Of a stretch of DNA of 64,000 nucleotides, positions 18,528 through 33,069 are shown piece after piece. The stretch lies in assembly GCF_055900595.2 (NCBI RefSeq), contig NZ_CM148325.1; one strand, 5' to 3'. A program made the position numbers and the translations under genes. The stretch's first letter is position 1. Each line of letters begins with the position of its first letter. The notes below the pieces were generated by a model. It worked only from the letters and a program-made list of their open reading frames with translations. It had not been told where the DNA came from and did no database searches.

Positions 18528-20770
<2,243 letters not shown>

Positions 20771-20783
20771 TTCCGGTCTCCTG

Positions 20784-21539
20784 TCAGAACTTATAACCAC
20801 GATGCAGCGCCACAACCCCTGCCGTCAGGTTGTAATAGTCGACACTTTCGAATCCAGCATCCTGCATCATAGCTTTCAGGGTGTCCTGATCGGGATGCAT
20901 GCGGATAGATTCAGCAAGATAACGGTAGCTGTCAGCGTCGTTCGCGACCAGTGAGCCAATACGCGGCAGCACATGGAAGGAGTAAGCGTCATAGGCCTTA
21001 CTTAACGGCTCGATAATCGGCTTCGAGAACTCAAGCACCAGCAGTCGGCCGCCAGGTTTCAGAACGCGATACATTGAACGCAGAGCTTTATCTTTGTCAG
21101 TGACGTTACGCAGACCAAACGAAATGGTGATGCAATCAAAGGTGTTATCCGGGAACGGCAGCGCCTCAGCGTTCGCCTGAACATACTCAACGTTGCCAAT
21201 CACACCAATATTACGCAGCTTCTCGCGGCCCATTTTGAGCATGGATTCATTGATATCAGCAAGGACCACTTTGCCAGTTTCACCCACCAGGCGGGAGAAT
21301 TTCGCTGTCAGGTCGCCAGTACCGCCTGCCAGATCCAGCACGGTCTGCCCACGGCGTACGCCGCTGCAATCAATCGTGAAGCGTTTCCACAAACGATGTA
21401 TGCCAAAAGACATCAAATCATTCATGACATCGTATTTCGATGCCACGGAATGGAAAACGTGAGCGACCATATCCGCTTTTTGTTCCTTCGCGACGGTCTG
21501 AAAACCAAAGTGCGTCGTTTCTTGTGACTTATCCACCAT
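20784..21539 (-). CDS. ubiE: demethylmenaquinone / 2-methoxy-6-polyprenyl-benzoquinol C-methyltransferase
   Basis: 251 aa starting [30 protein letters not shown]…; SAM-binding motif LDLAGGTGD. Confidence 0.93.
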
Positions 21540-21633
21540 CTCAATGCCTGCTCATCAAAAAATTGTTCCAGAAGTGTAACAGATTGGGCGTCGATGCCCT
21601 AGATTTCTACCCGGCTTAACTACCCCCAATGGG

Positions 21634-23061
21634 CTAGCGCGACTGCTGATTATATTCATCATCGCGTTGATAAGCTTCATCATTCGGCTGCTCCGGAACC
21701 GACCGCAGTCGATACTCTTCATCCTGGCTCACCGCTTGTTCAGCCAAATCCGGATTAATCTCGCGTTTAATTTCTACCCCTAAACCGCGAAACGCTTCTG
21801 CTTGCGCCAGCACATTTCCGCGACCTGAAGAGAGTTTTTTCATTGCCTGACGATAGTTGTCCTGTGCTTTGTCCAGACTTTGACCAATCGCGGACATATC
21901 ATCGACAAACAAGCGCATTTTGTCGTACAACTTGCTGGCGCGATCGGCTATTTTCTGGGCGTTACGACTTTGATGCTCATAGCGCCAGAGGTTGGCGATA
22001 GTGCGCAGCGCCACCAGCAGCGTGGTCGGGCTAACCAGCATGATATTGTTTTTCAACGCTTCGGTGATCAGCTCCGGCTGGCGGTCAAGCGCCAGTAAAA
22101 AAGCGGGTTCAACGGGAATAAACATCAGCACGTAATCCAGGGTTCGCAGCCCCGGCAGCTGTTGATAATCTTTGCGTCCCAGCAAACGGATATGGTTACG
22201 CACCGACGCGATATGTTCCTGTAGCGCGCTTTCGCGGGTGTAGTCGTCTTCTGCGTTGAAATAGCGTTCATAGGCGACCAGCGTCATTTTTGCGTCGATC
22301 ACCACAACTTTGCCCTGCGGCAGCCGCACGATGACATCCGGCTGCATCCGCGAGCGGGCGTCATTTTCGATGCTGACCTGGGTTTCATATTCATACCCTT
22401 CACGCAGACCGGAAGCCTCCAGCACACGCGTCAATACTACCTCGCCCCAGTTGCCCTGGGTTTTATTGTCGCCTTTCAGCGCACGCGTCAGGTTGATCGC
22501 TTCCTGGGCCATTTGCGCGTTGAGCTGCTGGAGATTGCGTATTTCGTGAGTCAGGGTATGGCGTTCTTGTGCTTCTTTACCGAAACTGTCCTGAACCTGA
22601 CGACGAAAACCGTCCAGTTGTTCACGTAGTGGCGACAACAGGCTGTTCAGACTCTGACGGTTTTGCTCATCAACCCGGCGATTGCTGTGCTCGAAAATAC
22701 GGTTGGCGAGGTTTTCAAACTGCTCACTGAGGCGCTGTTCGCTGTTGATCATTTGGCGAATTTTATCGTCAGCATGTTGCTGTACGGCCTCCATTCGCGT
22801 GGTGACCTCACGCAGATCCGCCTCCAGCGAGGTGTTAATGCTTTGCAGACTGCGCACTTCATTATTGAGTAACTCGCACTCAGCACGCCAATGTTCGCTT
22901 TGGGTAATTTGTTGTTTTGCCGCACTTAACTCCGCGACCATCTCTTCACGTTCAGCGAATTGCTCGGCTTTTTGCTGCGCATGCTGATAACTGGCAATCA
23001 GCCAGCCAATCGCCACGCTCACCAACGCAATAACTGCGTAAACCATGATTGAGATATCCAC
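21634..23061 (-). CDS. rmuC: DNA recombination protein RmuC
   Basis: Coiled-coil protein with N-terminal TM segment; start placed at the GTG (VDISIMVYAVIALV…) giving 475 aa; the ORF is open up to 23154. Confidence 0.8.
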   Translation of the reverse strand: MDISIMVYAVIALVSVAIGWLIASYQHAQQKAEQFAEREEMVAELSAAKQQITQSEHWRAECELLNNEVRSLQSINTSLEADLREVTTRMEAVQQHADDKIRQMINSEQRLSEQFENLANRIFEHSNRRVDEQNRQSLNSLLSPLREQLDGFRRQVQDSFGKEAQERHTLTHEIRNLQQLNAQMAQEAINLTRALKGDNKTQGNWGEVVLTRVLEASGLREGYEYETQVSIENDARSRMQPDVIVRLPQGKVVVIDAKMTLVAYERYFNAEDDYTRESALQEHIASVRNHIRLLGRKDYQQLPGLRTLDYVLMFIPVEPAFLLALDRQPELITEALKNNIMLVSPTTLLVALRTIANLWRYEHQSRNAQKIADRASKLYDKMRLFVDDMSAIGQSLDKAQDNYRQAMKKLSSGRGNVLAQAEAFRGLGVEIKREINPDLAEQAVSQDEEYRLRSVPEQPNDEAYQRDDEYNQQSR

Positions 23062-23179
23062 AACGCCTCCAGCCTCATTACTTACCCGCACAAAATAGAA
23101 TTGTGCTGTACAAACGTCCAGTTTGAAAGAAGTTTCCTGCGAGGCGCTACGCAAAACGATCCTTAATTTTTATTATTTT

Positions 23180-23215
23180 ATCCCACAATATGAGACGTAG
23201 TTTATATTGTGGGAT
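23180..23215. promoter_or_regulatory. perfect 12-bp inverted repeat (ATCCCACAATAT-N12-ATATTGTGGGAT), candidate operator
   Basis: Arms at 23180-23191 and 23204-23215 are exact reverse complements; located about 60 bp upstream of the IclR-family regulator ATG. Confidence 0.5.
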
Positions 23216-23276
23216 ATATCACCTTTTCCCCACGTCATTATGTGGAACACTTCAGCAATATCATCAGGAGAAACGT

Positions 23277-24044
23277 ATGGCAGATACCTCTTCAACCACC
23301 GCTGGCGCACAAACGTTATTACGCGGGCTGGCGGTTCTTAATGCTGTTTATAACGGCTGCCATGACCTGAAAAGTATCGGCGAGTTCACCGGCACGACCC
23401 GGAGCACAACCCATCGTTTAGTCACCGTTCTGGTGGAACAACGCTACCTGCGCCACGTCCCAACGCAGGGCTACCAACTGGGCGCCAAACTGATCGAATT
23501 CGGTGCCAGAGCACTGGAAAGCACCTCGCTGTACGAAGTTGCGCTGCCCGTTTTGCAGCGTCTGGCCCGTTACACCCTGGACACCGTGCATCTGGGGATC
23601 GTTGAAGGCGGCGAAGTGCTGTATCTGGAGAAGATCAACAGTCAGCGTGGGCTGGAAATGCGCTCACGCCCAGGCCATCGCATGCCACTGGCAATCACCG
23701 GCATCGGCAAGGCATTGATCCTCAACCGAACAGAAGAAGAGTGGCGCACGCTGTTTAAGACCTGTGGTGATGAAACAAAACTGGGCACATTTATTCAGAA
23801 CATGCGTCGTTATGCCGCCAGTGGTTTTGCTTTTGATCTGGAAGAGAACGAGCCGACTATCCGTTGCGTTGCAGCGCCGGTTTACAACGCCCGGGATGAA
23901 ATTGTGGCGGCTATTTCTGTCGCCAGTACCACTACGTATATGTCACTGGCGCGTCTGGAAGAACTGGCACCTTACGTCAAATCCTGTGCAGAAGAGATAT
24001 CCGCTGAACTGGGCTGGGGTAAGCACGTCCACAAAAATAAATAA
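23277..24044 (+). CDS. IclR-family transcriptional regulator
   Basis: 255 aa from MADTSSTTAGAQTLLRGLAVLNAV…; N-terminal wHTH and C-terminal effector domain pattern of IclR/KdgR-like regulators; RBS AGGAGA upstream of ATG 23277. Confidence 0.75.
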   Translation: MADTSSTTAGAQTLLRGLAVLNAVYNGCHDLKSIGEFTGTTRSTTHRLVTVLVEQRYLRHVPTQGYQLGAKLIEFGARALESTSLYEVALPVLQRLARYTLDTVHLGIVEGGEVLYLEKINSQRGLEMRSRPGHRMPLAITGIGKALILNRTEEEWRTLFKTCGDETKLGTFIQNMRRYAASGFAFDLEENEPTIRCVAAPVYNARDEIVAAISVASTTTYMSLARLEELAPYVKSCAEEISAELGWGKHVHKNK

Positions 24045-24067
24045 ACCATGACTAAAGGAAACGGCTA

Positions 24068-25072
24068 ATGTCGGGAAACACCTCATTTATTGCCCTGGAC
24101 TGGGGAACGTCATCGCTTCGGGCATGGCGTTTTGGCGACTCACCCAATCCACAAGAAAAACGTGAATTCCCGTGGGGGATCATGAAATTACCCTCCCAGG
24201 CAGCAACACGTGAGGACGCTTTCCACGATACGTTTTTACGTGTCTGCGGCGACTGGCTGGCACAATCCCAATGCCCGGTTCTGGCTTGCGGCATGATCGG
24301 CAGTGCGCAAGGGTGGCAACCCGCAGCTTATTTACCTTGCCCGGTCACTCTCGAGGGTCTGGCAAAGCAGTTGACGCCTGTTATCTACCAGCAGCAGACA
24401 ATGCTGCACATCATTCCCGGCGTGATTAAAGAAGGTGAAATGCCCGAAGTGATGCGTGGCGAAGAGACACAAATCTTCGGTGCTATCTCGATGGAACCGG
24501 CCCTGCAAAACGCGATCCGCCAGGGTATGCCTGTGCTGATTGGCTTACCTGGCACACATGCGAAATGGGCGGTAGTTGAAAACAACACCATTACCGATTT
24601 CCGAACCTTTATGACAGGCGAGTTATTTGATGTTTTATCCCGCCATTCGATTCTCGGTGCCACCATGCGTTCGGGAGATGAACCGCACTGGGATGCCTTC
24701 ACCCATGGGCTGAAATCAGCACAAGAGCATCATCAGACCGGATTATTATCGACGCTGTTTTCGACCCGTTCGCGCCTGCTGACCAGTAATCTTACGCCGT
24801 CCTCGCAGGGGGATTACCTTTCAGGATTACTGATAGGCCATGAATTATGCGGTCTGGCATCCAGTTTGCTACGTGATTTACCCGCCACAACACCGATCGC
24901 CTTAATCGGTAGCGCCACTCTGAACAGCCGCTATTCACAAGCATTCAGCCACGTTTTTCCCGACAGACAGCTACACGCCATTCCTAATGCCACTGAACAG
25001 GGGTTATGGCGAATCGCCCACGCTGCCGGGCTACTCTCCACCAACGCCAGGGAATGTACTCATGCCATTTAA
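24068..25072 (+). CDS. 2-dehydro-3-deoxygalactonokinase-like sugar-acid kinase (DgoK family)
   Basis: 334 aa; blocks shared with E. coli DgoK as recalled: IALDWGTSSLRAW, MRGEETQIFGA, PGTHAKWAVV, DFRTFMTGELFDVLSRHSILGA, SGLLIG. Confidence 0.7.
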   Translation: MSGNTSFIALDWGTSSLRAWRFGDSPNPQEKREFPWGIMKLPSQAATREDAFHDTFLRVCGDWLAQSQCPVLACGMIGSAQGWQPAAYLPCPVTLEGLAKQLTPVIYQQQTMLHIIPGVIKEGEMPEVMRGEETQIFGAISMEPALQNAIRQGMPVLIGLPGTHAKWAVVENNTITDFRTFMTGELFDVLSRHSILGATMRSGDEPHWDAFTHGLKSAQEHHQTGLLSTLFSTRSRLLTSNLTPSSQGDYLSGLLIGHELCGLASSLLRDLPATTPIALIGSATLNSRYSQAFSHVFPDRQLHAIPNATEQGLWRIAHAAGLLSTNARECTHAI

Positions 25073-25691
25073 TACGCTTTTGCAAAAAACCGGGTTAGTC
25101 GCCATTTTACGCGGCGTGAAACCGGATGAGATTGTCGCCATCGGTGAAAAGCTGTATGCCGCTGGATTTCGCCTGATTGAGATTCCCATGAACTCGCCGG
25201 AGCCGTTGCAAAGTATCAGTTTACTGCGCGACGCCCTGCCTAAGGACTGCCTGGTCGGAGCCGGAACTGTGCTTTCGGTGGAGCAAGTCGTCGCGGTTAA
25301 AGAGGCTGGAGGCCAGATTATCGTAATGCCGCATTGCGATACTGCGGTGATCCGTCGTGCCCGTGCGCTGGGTATGTATTGTGCGCCTGGCGTCGCTACG
25401 CCCACCGAAGCTTTTGCTGCCATTGAACATGGCGCCAATGCCATCAAGCTGTTCCCGGCTGAACAAATTACGCCTGAAGTCACCAAAGCCTGGCGTGCGG
25501 TTATTCCACAATCCGTTCCGATGTTACCGGTTGGCGGTATCACTCCAGACACAATGGCGCGTTATCTGAGCCACGGCGCAAACGGCTTTGGCCTCGGTTC
25601 TGCGCTATATCGCCCCGGCATGACGCCAGAGCAAGTCTATGAAAATGCAGTACTGTTTATGAACGCATGGAACAATTTAAATAGCAAATAA
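25062..25691 (+). CDS. KDPG/KDPGal-type class I aldolase (DgoA/Eda family)
   Basis: 209 aa from MPFNTLLQKTGLVAILRGVKPDE…; LIEIPMNSP, GAGTVLSVEQV and VGGITPD blocks parallel DgoA; overlaps the kinase stop by 11 bp. Confidence 0.7.
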   Translation: MPFNTLLQKTGLVAILRGVKPDEIVAIGEKLYAAGFRLIEIPMNSPEPLQSISLLRDALPKDCLVGAGTVLSVEQVVAVKEAGGQIIVMPHCDTAVIRRARALGMYCAPGVATPTEAFAAIEHGANAIKLFPAEQITPEVTKAWRAVIPQSVPMLPVGGITPDTMARYLSHGANGFGLGSALYRPGMTPEQVYENAVLFMNAWNNLNSK

Positions 25692-25715
25692 CTGATAAAT
25701 AAGGATATAAAAGCA

Positions 25716-26690
25716 ATGATAAAACATCTTACCTTACCGAAAAAAATGGCTGCAATGGTACTTCTTGCCGGCGCTGCCCTCAGCACTGCGCCTGTGCAGG
25801 CGGCCTCCTGGCCAACCAAACAGATCGAGTTAGTCGTACCCTACGCGGCCGGAGGCGGTACGGATCTGGTTGCCCGTGCCTTTGCTGATGCCGCCAAAAA
25901 CCATTTGCCCGTCAGCATCGGGGTTATCAATAAACCTGGCGGTGGCGGCGCTATCGGCCTGAGTGAAATCGCCGCTGCCCGCCCTAACGGTTACAAAATG
26001 GGTTTAGGCACGGTTGAACTGACCACCCTTCCCAGTCTCGGAATGGTGCGTTTTAAAACCAGCGACTTTAAACCCATTGCCCGTCTGAATGCGGATCCGG
26101 CTGCTATCACCGTCCGTGCCGATGCACCGTGGAATAGCTATGAAGAATTTATGACTTACGCCAAAGCGAATCCCGGAAAAGTACGCATTGGTAACTCAGG
26201 CACCGGAGCAATCTGGCATCTGGCGGCAGCTGCACTGGAAGACAAAACGGGCGTGAAGTTTTCTCATGTCCCATATGACGGCGCAGCCCCTGCCATTACA
26301 GGCCTGTTAGGCGGGCATATTGAAGCGGTTTCCGTAAGCCCAGGTGAAGTTATCAATCATGTGAAAGGCGGCAAGCTGAAGACACTGGTAGTGATGGCGG
26401 ATGAACATATGAAAACCATGCCTGACGTACCGACGTTAAAAGAGAAAGGCGTTGATCTCTCCATCGGCACCTGGCGCGGCCTGATTGTGTCGCAAAAAAC
26501 GCCGCAGGATGTGGTGGATGTTCTGGCAAAGGCAGCAAAAGAGACGGCTGAAGAGCCTGCATTCCAGGATGCGCTGCAAAAGTTGAATCTCAACTATGCA
26601 TGGCTTGATGGTGCCAGCTTCCAGACCCAAATCAACGAGCAGGAAAAGTACTTTGACGAGCTGCTGACTCGCCTGGGCCTGAAAAAATAA
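25716..26690 (+). CDS. tripartite tricarboxylate transporter (TTT) periplasmic substrate-binding protein, TctC/Bug family
   Basis: 324 aa; signal peptide MIKHLTLPKKMAAMVLLAGAALSTAPVQA; family assignment from overall sequence character and the adjacent TctB/TctA-like genes. Confidence 0.7.
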   Translation: MIKHLTLPKKMAAMVLLAGAALSTAPVQAASWPTKQIELVVPYAAGGGTDLVARAFADAAKNHLPVSIGVINKPGGGGAIGLSEIAAARPNGYKMGLGTVELTTLPSLGMVRFKTSDFKPIARLNADPAAITVRADAPWNSYEEFMTYAKANPGKVRIGNSGTGAIWHLAAAALEDKTGVKFSHVPYDGAAPAITGLLGGHIEAVSVSPGEVINHVKGGKLKTLVVMADEHMKTMPDVPTLKEKGVDLSIGTWRGLIVSQKTPQDVVDVLAKAAKETAEEPAFQDALQKLNLNYAWLDGASFQTQINEQEKYFDELLTRLGLKK

Positions 26691-26706
26691 TCCCGAGGTA
26701 CGGTCG

Positions 26707-27213
26707 ATGAACACAAAACAGTCTGTTGCTCAACTCGCCGTACCGCACCGCAAGCGCCTTTCATCCACTGTGGTGGTGGCGCTGTTACTTTGTGTGGTTG
26801 CTGGCGCGGTGATAATTAATGCCGCTGATTTTCCAGCAACTGCCATTGAAACGGATCCCGGTGCAAGTGCCTTCCCTACTTTCTATGCCTGCGCTCTGAT
26901 TGTGCTCGCTGTCTTACTTGTGATACGCGATCTTTTGCTGGCAAAACCAGTCCCTTGCGCCAACGCACAGGAAAAACCGGCATTCAGGAAAACGGCAACA
27001 GGAATTGCGGCAACCGCGTTTTATATCGTGGCAATGAGCTACTGCGGTTATCTCATTACTACTCCTGTTTTCCTCATCGTCATTATGGCATTGATGGGCT
27101 ACAGGCGATGGGTACTCACACCGGGTATTGCGCTGCTGTTAACGGCAATCCTCTGGTTGCTGTTTGTCGAAGCGTTACAGGTGCCATTGCCTGTCGGCAC
27201 ATTTTTCGAATAA
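26707..27213 (+). CDS. TTT small membrane subunit (TctB-like)
   Basis: 168-aa hydrophobic four-TM-type protein between the TctC-like and TctA-like genes. Confidence 0.6.
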   Translation: MNTKQSVAQLAVPHRKRLSSTVVVALLLCVVAGAVIINAADFPATAIETDPGASAFPTFYACALIVLAVLLVIRDLLLAKPVPCANAQEKPAFRKTATGIAATAFYIVAMSYCGYLITTPVFLIVIMALMGYRRWVLTPGIALLLTAILWLLFVEALQVPLPVGTFFE

Positions 27214-27225
27214 CAGGGGCCTGCA

Positions 27226-28716
27226 ATGTTTGAAAGTGAACTTTTAACTCAGGGGTTTTCGACATTACTCAGTAATCCTCAGGCGCTGCTGTTTGCCACG
27301 TTTGGAGTGATGCTGGGTATTATGATTGGCGCTCTGCCTGGCCTGACAGCGACCATGGGTGTGGCGATTTTGCTGCCTTTCACCTACGGCATGGAGCCTG
27401 TTTCTGGCTTGTTGATGATTTGCGGTGTCTTTTTTGGTGGTGTGTATGGTGGTTCTATCACCGCAATTTTGCTCAAAATTCCCGGTACGCCTGCCGCCGC
27501 TGCCACCGCCATTGACGGATATGAGCTGACGAAGCAGGGAAAAGCCGGGCTGGCGTTAAGTGCCGCCACGTTCTCTTCTTTTAGCGGTGGAACGCTCAGC
27601 ATTATCGTATTGATGTTTCTCTCTCCGGTACTTGCCAGTTGGGCGTTGAAATTTAGTGCCTCGGAGTCCTTCGCCCTGGCAACCTTCGGACTGAGCATTA
27701 TTGCCAGTATTTCCGGTGAGTCACTGATTAAAGGGCTGATTGCCGGGGTTGGCGGATTGCTTATCGCAACGATAGGCCTTGATCCAATGGGCGGTTTTCC
27801 ACGCTTTACAGGTGGATTTGTGGAGCTGATGAATGTGCCATTTATCCCGGTGATGATTGGTTTATTTGCTGCTTCAGAAGCATTCCGCTCTATGGAGCAA
27901 AACCAGCAAATTCGTCAGGGGGCGAAGGTGGCTATCGGCAGTCTGTTACTGCCCTGGCAAACACTACGCCGCATCGCATTAACCATTTTGCGCTCATCAG
28001 GATTAGGGGTTTTTATCGGCATGATCCCCGGTGCGGGGGCAGATATTGCAGCTTTTGTTGCCTATAACGAAACTCGTCGTTTCAGTAAGACGCCTGAAAA
28101 CTTTGGTAAGGGTGAGATTAAGGCGGTGGCCTCCTGTGAGGCAGGCGCGAATGGCTGCACCGGTGGCGCATTGTTACCTATGCTGACGTTGGGGATCCCA
28201 GGCGATGCGGTAACTGCCATCATGCTGGGCGCGTTAACGTTACAAGGGATGCAGCCAGGCCCACTTATGTTTACCGACCACGGCGATATGGTTTATACGC
28301 TGTTTGTCGGCATGATCTTTTGTTACTTCATGCTGCTAGTTCTTGGACTGCTCTCTTTGAAAGTCATCGGTAACGTGGTGAAGATCCCCGGCAATATTCT
28401 CACGCCGATGATCCTCGCACTTTGTGTGGTCGGGACTTATGCGCTGAACAATAGCCTGTTTGATGTTGGCATTATGCTGATTGCAGGCGTGGTGGGCTAT
28501 TTCATGCAAAAAGGGGGGTATCCGGCATCACCCGTAGTGCTGGCATTGATTATGGGGCCAATGGCGGAAAGTAATTTTCGCCGTGCGCTGTCGCTTTCTG
28601 GTGGGTCACTCGACTTTCTGTATACCCGACCGATAACCCTGGCATTGCTGACACTGGCAGCCTTTACGCTACTGACGCCAATAATACGCAAAATTATGCG
28701 CTTACGGCGTCAGTAA
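27226..28716 (+). CDS. TTT large permease subunit (TctA-like)
   Basis: 496-aa polytopic membrane protein; glycine-rich blocks typical of TctA. Confidence 0.7.
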   Translation: MFESELLTQGFSTLLSNPQALLFATFGVMLGIMIGALPGLTATMGVAILLPFTYGMEPVSGLLMICGVFFGGVYGGSITAILLKIPGTPAAAATAIDGYELTKQGKAGLALSAATFSSFSGGTLSIIVLMFLSPVLASWALKFSASESFALATFGLSIIASISGESLIKGLIAGVGGLLIATIGLDPMGGFPRFTGGFVELMNVPFIPVMIGLFAASEAFRSMEQNQQIRQGAKVAIGSLLLPWQTLRRIALTILRSSGLGVFIGMIPGAGADIAAFVAYNETRRFSKTPENFGKGEIKAVASCEAGANGCTGGALLPMLTLGIPGDAVTAIMLGALTLQGMQPGPLMFTDHGDMVYTLFVGMIFCYFMLLVLGLLSLKVIGNVVKIPGNILTPMILALCVVGTYALNNSLFDVGIMLIAGVVGYFMQKGGYPASPVVLALIMGPMAESNFRRALSLSGGSLDFLYTRPITLALLTLAAFTLLTPIIRKIMRLRRQ

Positions 28717-28770
28717 TTGATATCGCTCCCCGACGTTGGGGAGTATGAGACTGATGACAAACGCTAAATT

Positions 28771-28868
28771 GCCTGATGCGCTGCGCTTATCAGGCCTACC
28801 ACAGAAATGCAATATATTGAATTTGCATGCTTTTGTAGGCCGGATAAGGCGATCACGCCGCATCCGGC
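28771..28868. repeat. REP palindromic unit pair
   Basis: GCCTGATGCGCTGCGCTTATCAGGCCTAC … GTAGGCCGGATAAGGCGATCACGCCGCATCCGGC. Confidence 0.75.
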
Positions 28869-28895
28869 ATGAACAAAGCACACGTTAACAACAAT

Positions 28896-28930
28896 CGGAA
28901 TGCTCCCCTAAGCCAGGGAGCGTTTTTTAT
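28896..28930 (+). terminator. rho-independent terminator after the transporter operon
   Basis: GCTCCCCtaagccaGGGAGCG followed by TTTTTTATTT. Confidence 0.55.
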
Positions 28931-29691
28931 TTCAGCAGACGACGCGCCGCTTCCACCACGATTTTCACCGCATGGCTTTCGGTTTGTTTCATCGTCTCAG
29001 CATTCGGGATCTCTTGTTGGGTACGATTGACGATAACGCCCGCCACCATACCGGCACGAAGGCCCTGGCTTGCACACATGGTCAGCAGGGTTGCAGATTC
29101 CATTTCATAGTTCATTACGCCCATCGCCTGCCACTCTTCCATAGAACCTTTAAAGTGACGAACTACGCGACCAGAGTAAGTATCGTAACGTTCCTGACCT
29201 GGGTAGAAGGTATCAGAAGAAGCCGTCACGCCAACGTGAGTCGTCGCGCCGATGGATTTCGCAGCCTCAACCAGCGCGGTCGTACATTCGAAATCAGCGA
29301 CAGCCGGGAATTCCAGCGGTGCGAAGTGCAGGCTCGCGCCATCCAGACGAACAGACGCCGTGGTAACCAGGACATCGCCAACATTAATATGCGGCTGAAT
29401 AGCGCCCGTTGTACCGATACGCAGGAAGGTGCGAATGCCCAGCTGTGCCAGCTCTTCAACTGCAATAGAGGTAGACGGGCCGCCGATACCGGTAGAGCAG
29501 ACGATAACAGGTTTACCATCCAGCTCTGCACGCCAGGTGGTGAATTCGCGGTGAGATGCCAGCTTAACCGGCTTATCCATCAGCGCGGCGATCTTTTCCA
29601 CACGATCCGGGTCGCCAGGGACGATGGCAAGCGTAGCCCCTTGTAAATCGTTTTTAGTGAGGCCGAGATGAAAAACATCAGACTTGGACAT
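28927..29691 (-). CDS. udp: uridine phosphorylase
   Basis: 253 aa from [31 protein letters not shown]…; the ORF-track first codon is a TTG two codons upstream. Confidence 0.92.
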
Positions 29692-29952
29692 ATACAACTC
29701 CTCTGTGAATCGGTTTAGTCAGAAGAAGCAAAAAGACACTTTACCGAAGGGTTTAACATTTTTTCGTGACACTCATCACCTTGATGCAAATGCGTTGCAT
29801 AAATTTACCCAGCAAAAGTGATGCGAATCACATAAATCACTCTTCATTCTGCATGACTGCATAAAAGATGAGCCGATTCAGGCAATGTGATTTGTTGCAT
29901 GCTGACTATAGTTAACATTGCGCAACATTTTTATAAGGGTACGGAGAATACC

Positions 29953-30768
29953 ATGGCAACAACACAACAATCTGGATTTGCACCTGCTGCATCACCTCTC
30001 GCTTCGACCATCGTTCAGACCCCGGATGACGCGATTGTAGCAGGCATCACCTCTATCCCTTCACAAGGGGATAACATGCCTGCTTACCATGCCAGACCAA
30101 AGCAGAGCGATGGCCTACTACCAGTGGTCATTGTAGTGCAGGAAATTTTTGGCGTGCATGAACATATCCGCGATATTTGTCGCCGTCTGGCGCTGGAGGG
30201 GTATCTGGCTATCGCACCTGAACTTTACTTCCGCGAAGGCGATCCGAATGATTTTGCCGATATCCCTACGCTGCTTAGCGGTCTGGTAGCAAAAGTGCCT
30301 GACTCGCAGGTGCTGGCCGATCTCGATCATGTCGCCAGTTGGGCGTCACGCAACGGCGGCGATGTTCATCGCTTAATGATCACCGGATTTTGCTGGGGTG
30401 GGCGCATCACCTGGCTGTATGCTGCGCATAATCCACAACTGAAAGCAGCGGTGGCATGGTACGGCAAATTAACCGGCGATAAGACGCTGAATTCACCGAA
30501 ACAACCTGTTGATATCGCAACCGATCTTAACGCTCCGGTTCTCGGCTTATATGGCGGCCAGGATAACAGCATTCCGCAGGAGAGCGTTGAAACCATGCGC
30601 CAGGCGCTGCGGGCTGCTAATGCGAAAGCAGAGATTATCGTCTACCCGGATGCCGGGCATGCATTCAACGCCGATTATCGCCCGAGCTATCATGCCGAAT
30701 CTGCGAAAGATGGCTGGCAGCGAATGCTGGAGTGGTTCAGGCTGTATGGTGGGAAGAAGTCGCTGTAA
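29953..30768 (+). CDS. ysgA: dienelactone hydrolase-family protein
   Basis: 271 aa from [14 protein letters not shown]…; alpha/beta-hydrolase with nucleophile in GFCWGG; RBS ACGGAG. Confidence 0.8.
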
Positions 30769-30776
30769 TGAGAAAA

Positions 30777-30806
30777 GACCGGGTGGTATTACCACCCGGT
30801 TTGGAT
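30777..30806. terminator. bidirectional terminator between convergent ysgA and metE
   Basis: GACCGGGTGGTattACCACCCGGT with T-rich runs on both strands. Confidence 0.6.
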
Positions 30807-30807
30807 T

Positions 30808-33069
30808 TTACCCCCGACGCAAATTCTGCGCCGCCTGCACCATGTTCGCCAGTGCCGCGCGGGTTTCTGGCCAGCCGCGCGTTTTCAGACCACAGTCCGG
30901 GTTGACCCACAGACGCTCTGCCGGAATGCGTTTTGCCGCTTTCTTCAGCAGGGACTCAATCCATTCCACGCTCGGTACGTTTGGCGAGTGAATGTCATAG
31001 ACGCCAGGACCGATTTCATTCGGATAATCAAACTCTTCAAACGACTCCAGCAACTCCATGTCGGAACGCGAGGTTTCGATTGTGATGACGTCAGCATCCA
31101 GCGCCGCAATCGAATCCATGATGTCGTTGAACTCGCAGTAACACATGTGAGTGTGGATTTGCGTGTCATCTTTCGCTACGGCAGCGTTGATACGGAAAGC
31201 CTCCACGCCCCACTGAAGATAGGCATCCCAGTCGCTGCGACGCAGCGGTAAACCTTCGCGTAGCGCCGGTTCATCAATCTGGATGATGCCAATTCCAGCC
31301 GCTTCCAGATCGGCCACTTCATCACGCAGCGCCAGCGCAATTTGTTTGGCGATGGTTTCACGGCTGACATCTTCACGCGGGAACGACCAGCAGAGAATGG
31401 TCACCGGACCAGTCAGCATCCCTTTCACCGGTTTGTCGGTCAGCGATTGCGCATACTTCGCCCACTCCACAGTAATCGGTGCCGGGCGGCTAACGTCACC
31501 AATGACAATCGGTGGCTTCACGCAGCGGGAACCGTAGCTCTGTACCCAACCGTTTTGCGTAAAGACAAAGCCATCCAGGTGCTCGCCAAAGTATTCCACC
31601 ATGTCATTACGCTCGGCCTCACCATGCACCAGCACATCCAGACCCAGACGTTCCTGCTCAACAATGGCCTGCTTGATATGTTCTGCAATGCCCGTACGAT
31701 AGTTGTTGGCGTCGAGATTACCCTTTTTGAAATCCAGACGCAGGGTACGGATTTCTGTGGTTTGCGGGAAAGAGCCAATCGTGGTGGTCGGCCAGGCTGG
31801 CAGTTTAAAACGCGCACGCTGGGCTTCAGCACGCACTTCATAAACGTTCGCACGCTGACTGTCCTGGGCGGTGATCGCCGACAGACGCTTTTCTACTGCC
31901 GGATTATGTACACGAGTAGAGTGACGACGCGCCTGAATCGGAGCGCTCCACCCTGCCAGAGCTGCCGTATCACCACTGTTCAGCGCATCGCGCAGCAATG
32001 CCAGTTCATGACATTTTTGCAGGGCGAAGGCAAACCAGCTTTTCACTTCTGCATCAAGACGCGTTTCCACGCTCAGGTCGATAGGGCTGTGCAGCAATGA
32101 GCAGGAAGATGCCACCCACAAATCACGTTTGCCGACAATGTCCTTAATTTGCGCATATTTCTCGGTAAGATCGGCGCGCCAGACGTTACGACCATTGATA
32201 AGACCAGCAGATAGCAGCCAGTCAGAAGGCAGACGCTTGTGCAGTTCAGCAACGTCATCTTTACCATGTACGAGATCGACATGCAGACCCTGAACAGGCA
32301 GCGCAGTAATGGTGTCGAGATTTGGCGTTACGCCTTCAAAATAGGTAGTCAGCAGCAGTTTCACCTGGCCCTGGAGCGCGTCGTAAGCGGGTTTATAGGC
32401 GTCCAGCCACGCCTGCGGCAGTTCCAGCACCAGCGCGGGTTCGTCGATCTGTACCCACTCAATGCCGCGTTTTGCCAGTTCTGCCAACACTTGCTGATAA
32501 ACCGGCAGAATGTCGTTTAGCAGGCTCAGGCGATCAAACTGTTCACCTTTCACTTTACCCAGCCACAGGTAGGTAACCGGTCCCAGCAGCACGGGCTTGA
32601 CCTTGTGGCCCAGCGCCAGCGCCTCGTCCACTTCCTCCAGCAGTTGCGTCCAGGTCAGTTTGAACTGTTGGCCTTTAACGAACTCCGGCACCATGTAGTG
32701 ATAGTTGGTGTTAAACCATTTGGTCATTTCCGCTGCCGCCGCAGGTTCGCCAGTCGGCGCACGTCCACGACCAATACGGAACAGGGTGTCGATATCTACC
32801 GAACCATCTTTGTTCTGGTGACGCGCCGGAACGTTACCCAGCAGCAGGCTGGTGGTCAGGACATGATCGTACCAGGCAAAATCACCCACCGGCAGCAGGT
32901 CGATACCTGCTTGCTTTTGTTGATCCCAGTGACGAGCACGCAGTTCACGCCCTACCGCCAGCAGTTCTTCACGCGTGGAGTTCCCCGCCCAATAACTCTC
33001 TTGCGCTTTTTTCAGCTCGCGACGCAGGCCAACGCGAGGGAAACCGAGGGTGTGATTAAGAATTGTCAT
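30808..33069 (-). CDS. metE: cobalamin-independent methionine synthase
   Basis: 753 aa starting [30 protein letters not shown]…. Confidence 0.95.

Follow-up and report, generated by a model that had tools for sequence, protein, structure and literature searches.

A six-gene cluster between rmuC and udp in Escherichia coli predicted to import and cleave a 2-keto-3-deoxy sugar acid

Six genes and their predicted pathway

We analyzed a window of 64,000 nt of Escherichia coli DNA (contig NZ_CM148325.1), and in it a cluster of six plus-strand genes that lies between rmuC and udp (interval 23062–28926; all numbering is that of the whole window). The genes code for an IclR-family regulator, a DgoK-family kinase, a DgoA-type aldolase and the three components of a TctCBA-type tripartite tricarboxylate transporter (TTT). 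On the basis of the observed family membership, gene order, conservation and purifying selection, we propose that the cluster very probably serves to take up a sugar acid that feeds DgoK/DgoA-type cleavage; the narrower prediction that this acid is 2-keto-3-deoxygalactonate (KDGal) is, in our judgment, evenly balanced. A preliminary description of this DNA had cautiously read the cluster as a means to take up and catabolize a 2-keto-3-deoxy or similar acidic sugar, and the comparative genomics reported here supports that reading.

Gene calls came from a listing of open reading frames (ORFs) and from RefSeq's annotation of E200086, an E. coli strain isolated from human stool in Mali, to which the window interval is 100% identical. 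Both bore out the six genes noted earlier and the gaps between them (23, −11, 24, 16 and 12 bp, in order), and the interval proved to be the exact space from the rmuC start to the udp stop. RefSeq names the products in E200086 as an IclR-family regulator, a 2-dehydro-3-deoxygalactonokinase, a 2-dehydro-3-deoxy-6-phosphogalactonate aldolase, a Bug-family TTT binding protein, TctB and a TTT permease. In K-12 MG1655 the six genes are absent from this site; there, as the preliminary description had stated, udp and rmuC are adjacent, with a spacer of 140 bp.

The kinase matched Pfam DGOK (PF05035) at 2e-89 over model positions 1–281 of 281 and was 35% identical to K-12 DgoK (BLASTP E-value 2e-44). 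Its matches in the PDB were the DgoK structures 3r1x and 3t69 and nothing else, and none of the NCBIfam models matched it. Comparison with kinases from the related loci described below revealed 44–47% identity to those adjoining true DgoD in Bordetella and Kerstersia, and only 23–27% identity to clostridial KduI-linked kinases and to enterobacterial paralogues linked to an iron alcohol dehydrogenase. The identity to DgoD-linked kinases, higher than that to K-12 DgoK, argues for a predicted KDGal kinase activity.

The aldolase scored 322.9 bits against NCBIfam PRK09140 (2-keto-3-deoxy-6-phosphogalactonate [KDPGal] aldolase; cutoff 207), and the Eda models stayed below their own cutoffs. It was 46% identical to K-12 DgoA, and its best PDB match was the E. 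coli KDPGal aldolase 2v81 (172 bits), with aldolases for KDPG (2-keto-3-deoxy-6-phosphogluconate) at 111 bits or less. The protein has the Schiff-base lysine (K129), the catalytic glutamate (E40), a valine in strand 7 (V157) and the Ala-Ile pair of strand 1 (in VAILRG). Mutagenesis has placed KDPGal versus KDPG stereoselectivity at Val154 of strand 7 and Ala11-Ile12 of strand 1 (PMC4915726), and the window aldolase carries the residues of the KDPGal rather than the KDPG stereochemical type. Across the related loci, the aldolase had the KDPGal-type valine wherever it was linked to a DgoK-family kinase and the Eda-type threonine wherever it was linked to a PfkB kinase. By these comparisons the two enzymes are true DgoK-family and DgoA-family proteins; the kinship to 2-dehydro-3-deoxygalactonokinase and to KDPGal/KDPG aldolases that had been claimed for them held on proper alignment, and neither fell into an unrelated family.

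The binding protein matched Pfam TctC at 3e-54 over residues 52–321, and its N-terminus, MIKHLTLPKKMAAMVLLAGAALSTAPVQA before AS, has the form of a typical signal peptide ending VQA-AS, with residues 30–324 as the predicted mature protein. Hydrophobic segments of TctB and TctA were counted by hydropathy scan (Table 1). The last three genes are predicted to make up a complete TctCBA system; Pfam matches for all three components, the hydropathy and the signal peptide agree with the earlier reading of these genes as a TTT.

The regulator scored below the NCBIfam cutoffs for BhcR (140.8 bits; cutoff 350) and KdgR (NF011671; 123.5 bits; cutoff 275), as it did with the PcaR and IclR models, and its PDB matches were 1mkm (IclR) and 1ysp (the KdgR effector domain). 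We classify it from these scores as an IclR-family member that matches no equivalog at threshold. Some 60–95 bp upstream of its start codon lies a double box that occurs once in the window, with 0 occurrences expected by chance. All the Enterobacterales cassettes that we examined (B2 E. coli, E. whittamii, Buttiauxella, two Klebsiella, Phytobacter, Brenneria, Enterobacter, Citrobacter and Lelliottia) have an equivalent double box upstream of their IclR gene, and it is kept even though coding identity in those other genera is only ~65–80%. This conserved element is likely the operator of the operon. A scan with the sigma-70 consensus gave no convincing plus-strand promoter upstream of the regulator, and an Rfam search of the interval gave no RNA family. 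At the other end, a hairpin with a T-run is predicted to end the operon.

In the scheme that we propose, the IclR-family protein would repress the operon at the double box and would be released when the acid or its phosphate accumulates. TctC would capture free KDGal in the periplasm and pass it to the secondary transporter TctB/TctA. The DgoK-type kinase would phosphorylate KDGal at C6 to give KDPGal, which the DgoA-type aldolase would cleave to pyruvate and D-glyceraldehyde-3-phosphate. Ligand identity, enzyme specificities and repression are the predicted parts of this scheme.

Table 1. Features of the rmuC-udp region, in window coordinates.
Feature	Position	Strand	Basis or remark
rmuC	21634-23061	minus	left flank
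rmuC-udp spacer, left part	23062-23156	none	common with K-12; upstream region of rmuC
Segment absent from K-12	23157-28932 (~5.78 kb)	plus	whole operon inside
Candidate operator, TCCCACAATAT-N12-ATATTGTGGGA	23181-23214	plus	two adjacent TCCCA...TGGGA-type boxes
IclR-family regulator, 255 aa, predicted operon repressor	23277-24044	plus	NCBIfam and PDB matches
DgoK-family kinase, 334 aa, predicted 2-dehydro-3-deoxygalactonokinase	24068-25072	plus	Pfam DGOK
DgoA-type class I aldolase, 209 aa, predicted KDPGal aldolase	25062-25691	plus	NCBIfam PRK09140
TctC/Bug-family periplasmic binding protein, 324 aa, signal peptide	25716-26690	plus	Pfam TctC
TctB small membrane subunit, 168 aa	26707-27213	plus	Pfam TctB 2e-20; four hydrophobic segments
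TctA large permease, 496 aa	27226-28716	plus	Pfam TctA 2e-151; at least 10 hydrophobic segments
REP/BIME-like multi-copy repeat	28743-28902	none	between tctA and udp
Intrinsic-terminator-like hairpin and T-run	28897-28926	plus	11-pair stem, then TTTTTTATTT; abuts udp stop codon
udp	from 28927 (stop-codon side)	minus	right flank

Related cassettes and the identity of the substrate

The E. coli dgoRKADT operon for D-galactonate has the same kinase-aldolase order and overlap, and the same end products, pyruvate and glyceraldehyde-3-phosphate. The cluster differs from it in having no DgoD homologue (K-12 DgoD is encoded elsewhere), an IclR-family regulator instead of the GntR-family DgoR, and TctCBA instead of DgoT, a symporter of the major facilitator superfamily. 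With the KdgR/KdgT/KdgK/Eda system for free 2-keto-3-deoxygluconate (KDG) it shares the logic of uptake, phosphorylation and cleavage with an IclR-family repressor, and the second-best NCBIfam match of its regulator is KdgR. However, the cluster kinase is an ASKHA protein of DgoK type, not a PfkB protein, the two aldolases are of opposite C4 stereo-types, uptake is by a TTT and not by KdgT, and all cluster genes stand in one operon. The Salmonella TctCBA citrate transporter and the Bordetella Bug proteins have the same three-component architecture and Pfam families, but the cluster lacks the TctDE two-component regulator, its transporter genes are embedded with sugar-acid enzymes, and its binding protein is no more than a distant relative of BugD (165 bits) and BugE. 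The TctABC system of Halomonas, reported to transport galactarate and glucarate (Leyn et al. 2017, cited in PMC5812351), is likewise a TTT dedicated to a sugar acid; judged from that description, its substrates are dicarboxylic aldarates and its downstream enzymes differ from those of the cluster.

To place the cluster among its relatives, we clustered the ORFs around ~86 loci that carry orthologues of the binding protein (48–99% identity), with a neighbourhood of 9–10 kb for DgoD. The six-gene cassette recurs across Proteobacteria with its gene order kept, for example in Phytobacter, Brenneria, Enterobacter, Rhodoferax and Azospirillum and in many more, and in Brenneria and Phytobacter it is as bare as in E. 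coli. Among the 86 loci, TctA was present in 84, TctB in 83, an aldolase of the Eda/DgoA fold in 75 and an IclR gene in 75. The kinase was of the DgoK family in 58 and a PfkB protein in 15, the best match of the latter being the KDG/KDGal kinase family, below cutoff. Other neighbours were a short-chain dehydrogenase (SDR; ~50 loci), an SMP-30-like lactonase (19), KduI (6) and an iron alcohol dehydrogenase (5); true DgoD, 60–63% identical to K-12 DgoD, was found in four loci only. The Bacilli have the same group of binding proteins alongside a PfkB kinase and an Eda-type aldolase. These shared kinase and aldolase types suggest a common theme of transporter, 2-keto-3-deoxy-hexonate kinase and aldolase, in which dehydratases are exceptional, and the bare cassettes suggest that the imported molecule is itself the substrate of the kinase. 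A dehydratase or glycosidase was also sought among the conserved neighbours of the alphaproteobacterial cassettes, and none was found; those neighbours were a c-di-GMP phosphodiesterase, ClpB, two-component proteins and an ABC ATPase.

The binding protein had 11 TctC-family matches in the PDB, the closest being 4x9t from Polaromonas (Bpro_3516; 336 bits) and the next 25hk, the TTT-C protein of Vibrio sp. C42 (219 bits), which belongs to a TTT for alginate oligosaccharides (PMC13390454). The second loop of 4x9t, NGGNGSTWH, differs from that of the window protein, so that 4x9t is more likely a close paralogue than an orthologue. The Vibrio locus likewise ends in a 2-keto-3-deoxy-hexonate kinase and an aldolase. 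Unlike it, the E. coli cluster has no lyases, KdgF or DehR, and its kinase and aldolase are of DgoK/DgoA type and not KdgK/Eda. At the 11 ligand-contact positions of 25hk, which come from docking and mutagenesis of a protein with only ~40% identity to ours (PMC13390454), eight residues are identical in the window protein, including all three proposed specificity residues (G24, G183 and T225); the differing contacts are F19 (Tyr in the window protein), G20 (Ala) and S164/E165 (Ala/Pro). The first-loop motif is shared, whereas the second loop reads NSGTGAIWH in the window protein and STAAPN-FY in the Vibrio protein. Within the clade, the contact columns and the second loop are near-invariant (Y/F-A/S-G-T-D-P; NSGTGAIWH; A/N-P-A/G-T-R), except in four DgoD-linked binding proteins, where Thr replaces Tyr/Phe43 and the NSGTGAIWH loop is altered. 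We infer that this split of the pocket would fit a D-galactonate ligand where DgoD is present and a 3-deoxy-2-keto acid elsewhere.

Several points weigh against KDGal as the ligand, beyond the distance of the pocket template. The ligand is not readable from sequence, the closest solved relative, 4x9t, is an apo structure with no ligand recorded, and there is no established natural source of free KDGal in gut or urine. The ~50 SDR loci and the 19 with an SMP-30-like lactonase suggest a route from sugar through lactone to aldonate, with the dehydratase elsewhere; in that case D-galactonate could be what is transported. In Bacillus-type loci that share the pocket columns exactly, the aldolase is of the Eda type (KDG-type). 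Five clostridial loci combine the cassette with KduI, an SDR, a very distant DgoK-family kinase and a Val-type aldolase. In the one locus where this was confirmed, KduI scores above the NCBIfam cutoff and the SDR is KduD. Here KduI/KduD predicts a gluco configuration and the aldolase type a galacto one. Given the Bacillus-type and the clostridial loci, either the binding protein is blind to C4 epimers or the stereochemical reading is imperfect.

The main rival to import of KDGal is import of D-galactonate itself: TctCBA would be a high-affinity TTT counterpart of DgoT, core DgoD would make KDGal, and the cluster would duplicate DgoK and DgoA. In four related loci (Bordetella genomosp. 4, Kerstersia, Martelella and Sinirhodobacter) DgoD and a 2-hydroxyacid dehydrogenase directly adjoin the orthologous TctCBA, and one of these also has a DgoR-like GntR regulator. 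The SDR and lactonase neighbours in Azospirillum and Rhodoferax fit a route from galactose to galactonate, and E. coli encodes dgoD elsewhere. Yet at least 50 cassettes have no dehydratase, some of them bare in Enterobacterales, and the DgoD-linked binding proteins form the variant group with Thr43 and a changed loop, unlike the E. coli protein. Moreover, D-galactonate induces the full dgo operon, via DgoR, which would make a second kinase and aldolase redundant. We consider this reading unlikely. Import of KDG or of a uronate-derived precursor, with the cassette enzymes acting on a gluco-configured acid, seems to us quite unlikely. In its favour, 25hk, whose G24, G183 and T225 the window protein keeps, binds unsaturated alginate oligosaccharides and lies in a locus with KdgF, DehR, KdgK and Eda. 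True KduI and KduD are joined to the cassette in clostridial loci; KduI, an SDR and KdgT occur near it in one Azospirillum locus; in Bacilli the partners of the binding protein are a PfkB kinase and an Eda-type aldolase; and the regulator resembles KdgR (124 bits). However, the window aldolase has the KDPGal-type Val and Ala-Ile and exceeds the curated KDPGal cutoff, the clostridial kinases share only 23–27% identity with that of the window, E. coli is already equipped with KdgT, KdgK and Eda, and its cluster contains no lyase, KduI, KduD or reductase.

That family names mislead on specificity, and that the substrate is another acid such as 3-deoxy-D-manno-octulosonate (KDO), 3-deoxy-D-arabino-heptulosonate (DAH), 2-keto-3-deoxynononate (KDN) or an unrelated carboxylate, is in our view distinctly improbable. 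The kinase is only 35% identical to a characterized DgoK and matches no NCBIfam model, the SDR and lactonase neighbours are unaccounted for, and known TTT systems have diverse substrates; against this, the kinase and aldolase go along with pairs linked to true dgoD, the aldolase scores above the threshold of a curated family, and none of the ~86 contexts points to KDO, DAH or sialic-acid metabolism. Least probable by far is that the cluster is a remnant in decay that no longer has a function. Most E. coli lack it, which implies repeated loss, and it is occasionally disrupted. However, dN/dS between the window and B2 alleles is 0.01–0.27 across the six genes (regulator 0.15; tctA 0.012), and purifying selection acts on all six. 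The window, B2 and BL21 have every ORF intact, the binding-protein gene is complete in nearly every carrier, and the candidate regulatory site is conserved. Returning to KDGal, a broader and more tentative extension, which we hold to be possible but somewhat doubtful, is that the cassette is a cross-phylum salvage route for free 2-keto-3-deoxy-hexonates, serving KDGal in Proteobacteria and the gluco form in Bacilli. Their source may be neighbouring microbes that set them free in breaking down galactonate, idonate, or red-algal or pectic polymers.

A second cassette type is present at another chromosomal site in Enterobacter hormaechei, Citrobacter amalonaticus and Lelliottia. Its binding protein is ~61–62% identical to that of the window (full-length alignment), and it has a divergently transcribed iron alcohol dehydrogenase, a distant DgoK paralogue (23–26% identical) and a second IclR gene downstream. 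Upstream of its first IclR gene lies the palindrome ATATTTCCA-N12-TGGAAATAT, perfect in Enterobacter and Citrobacter and imperfect in Lelliottia. Spirabiliibacterium spp. and Photobacterium pectinilyticum have the order IclR-SDR-TctCBA-(SMP-30-like)-DgoK-aldolase with no dehydratase nearby, and the Spirabiliibacterium operon stands directly upstream of the housekeeping genes tsaE, amiB and mutL.

Distribution and history of the cluster

The binding-protein gene was found in 1,456 of 5,426 complete E. coli genomes (27%), almost always in one copy, and was essentially complete in 1,455 of the 1,456. By megablast, 1,452 genomes covered at least 80% of the interval, and in the remaining genomes the matches were confined to the repeat at its 3′ end. 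Among the carriers are UTI89, NU14, an O25b:H4-ST131 strain, NRG 857C and the B strains BL21 and NEBExpress; BL21 has an intact cluster at the same site. Near-identical proteins, none of whose records bears a gene name, also came from IAI39, from REL606/BL21(DE3)-type accessions and from some E. fergusonii, E. albertii and Shigella sonnei. The earlier remark that TTT transporters are uncommon in E. coli is thus not borne out, with this one in 27% of complete genomes, BL21 included. As minor observations, the binding-protein gene is interrupted by IS1 in one genome, one genome has a partial copy, and one match to the gene lies on a plasmid record.

Wider distribution was assessed from a scan of one genome per species. 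At the corresponding ubiE/rmuC–udp/ysgA position, the same six genes were found in Escherichia whittamii, Buttiauxella warmboldiae, Klebsiella spallanzanii, K. indica and Phytobacter massiliensis; in the last of these the cassette directly follows ubiE, and rmuC is missing from its usual place. The synteny comparison across the rmuC-udp interval that the preliminary description had suggested thus finds the cluster at one site in several genera of Enterobacteriaceae and not in K-12.

Nucleotide identity to the window was 93–97% for the cluster and 90–95% for the flanks in E. whittamii, and 64–79% and 70–87%, respectively, in the other genera. The divergence of the cluster parallels that of its flanks in B2 E. 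coli, E. whittamii, Buttiauxella, Klebsiella and Phytobacter, and between the window and B2 its dS is similar to that of rmuC, ubiE and udp. The GC content of the cluster is 0.50–0.57, like that of the flanks, and the ORF listing and annotation contain no mobility genes in the interval (flanking direct repeats were not searched for). We considered a horizontally acquired island and rejected it, given the ordinary GC content, the lack of mobility genes and the divergence in step with the flanks. Because of these same features, the simplest reading is that the cluster is an old resident of the rmuC-udp site with repeated loss, K-12 included. Within Escherichia, B2, F and B strains, the lineage of the window and E. 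whittamii have retained it, and K-12 and many others have lost it. BL21 resembles B2 from the left spacer up to and including ysgA and resembles K-12 in rmuC, and the cluster appears, from such sequence mosaics, to move within the species by homologous recombination.

Alleles at least 99% identical to those of the window were present in only 8 of the 5,426 complete genomes, the other carriers being 95–97% identical. The core genes of the window from ubiB to metE (18528–33069) are ~94–98% identical to K-12 and B2 alike; rmuC, for example, is 95.4% identical to K-12 and 94.4% to B2, and ysgA 94.7% and 94.1%. Since the flanks are as divergent as the cluster, the window derives from an E. coli lineage that is unusually divergent, not from a carrier of a foreign allele.

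Homology to K-12 extends on the left to CTACGCAAAA, ending after 23156, and resumes on the right at ~28933 (both junctions aligned by eye); the K-12 counterpart of the segment between them is 44 bp long and contains the udp terminator hairpin. The C-terminus of Udp reads RRLLK in cluster-bearing Escherichia (the window, B2, BL21 and E. whittamii) and RRLL in K-12, which places the right junction at the udp stop codon. The extra lysine is absent from cluster-bearing Klebsiella and Phytobacter (RRLL) and Buttiauxella (RRLI).

Earlier literature, implications and neighbouring features

In the openly searchable full-text literature (subscription-only literature lay outside our reach) we found no experimental paper on the cluster. 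Its tctA gene is merely listed as differentially expressed in an enteropathogenic E. coli isolate (PMC4464170), and the cluster goes unmentioned in two papers on the genome and metabolic models of BL21. The component families, the textbook chemistry and the RefSeq product names are known already, and this is not a new kind of system. We found no description of what the gene content suggests, a DgoK/DgoA pair without DgoD in an IclR-regulated, TTT-fed module, nor of the wide conservation of this module or its presence in BL21 and extraintestinal pathogenic E. coli (ExPEC) lineages.

If the proposal is correct, about a quarter of E. coli could scavenge a sugar-acid intermediate that K-12 cannot import by this route, among them the production strain BL21 and the main extraintestinal pathogenic lineages (ST131, ST95 and ST73-like B2). 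The cluster would then add a reaction set that is missing from K-12-based metabolic models, and would provide a first substrate both for a TTT system in E. coli and for a large, hitherto unassigned clade of Bug/TctC binding proteins. It would also be a simple case of cross-feeding on pathway intermediates. Should the salvage-route extension hold, the cluster would give a TTT its first physiological role in E. coli and the clade of the orphan structure 4X9T a ligand class, and might be a niche-fitness trait of B2/ExPEC lineages. Carriage by BL21 makes the prediction cheap to test, and KDGal has been prepared from D-galactonate by recombinant DgoD (PMC12632266).

Between tctA and udp lies a repeat resembling repetitive extragenic palindromes or bacterial interspersed mosaic elements (REP/BIME), which had 5–10 megablast matches per genome in nearly all E. 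coli. At this position it is present in the window and in E. whittamii and missing from B2 and BL21, where the tctA-udp distance is ~34 bp; it stands outside the function of the operon. A second islet follows ysgA (between ysgA and metE) in BL21 and in the B2 strain NRG 857C, and is absent from the window and K-12. In BL21 only its first gene fell inside the stretch examined; in NRG 857C its genes code for a cysteine hydrolase, a DUF2877 protein, FdrA, a DUF1116 protein, a carbamate kinase and an allophanate-hydrolase-related product.

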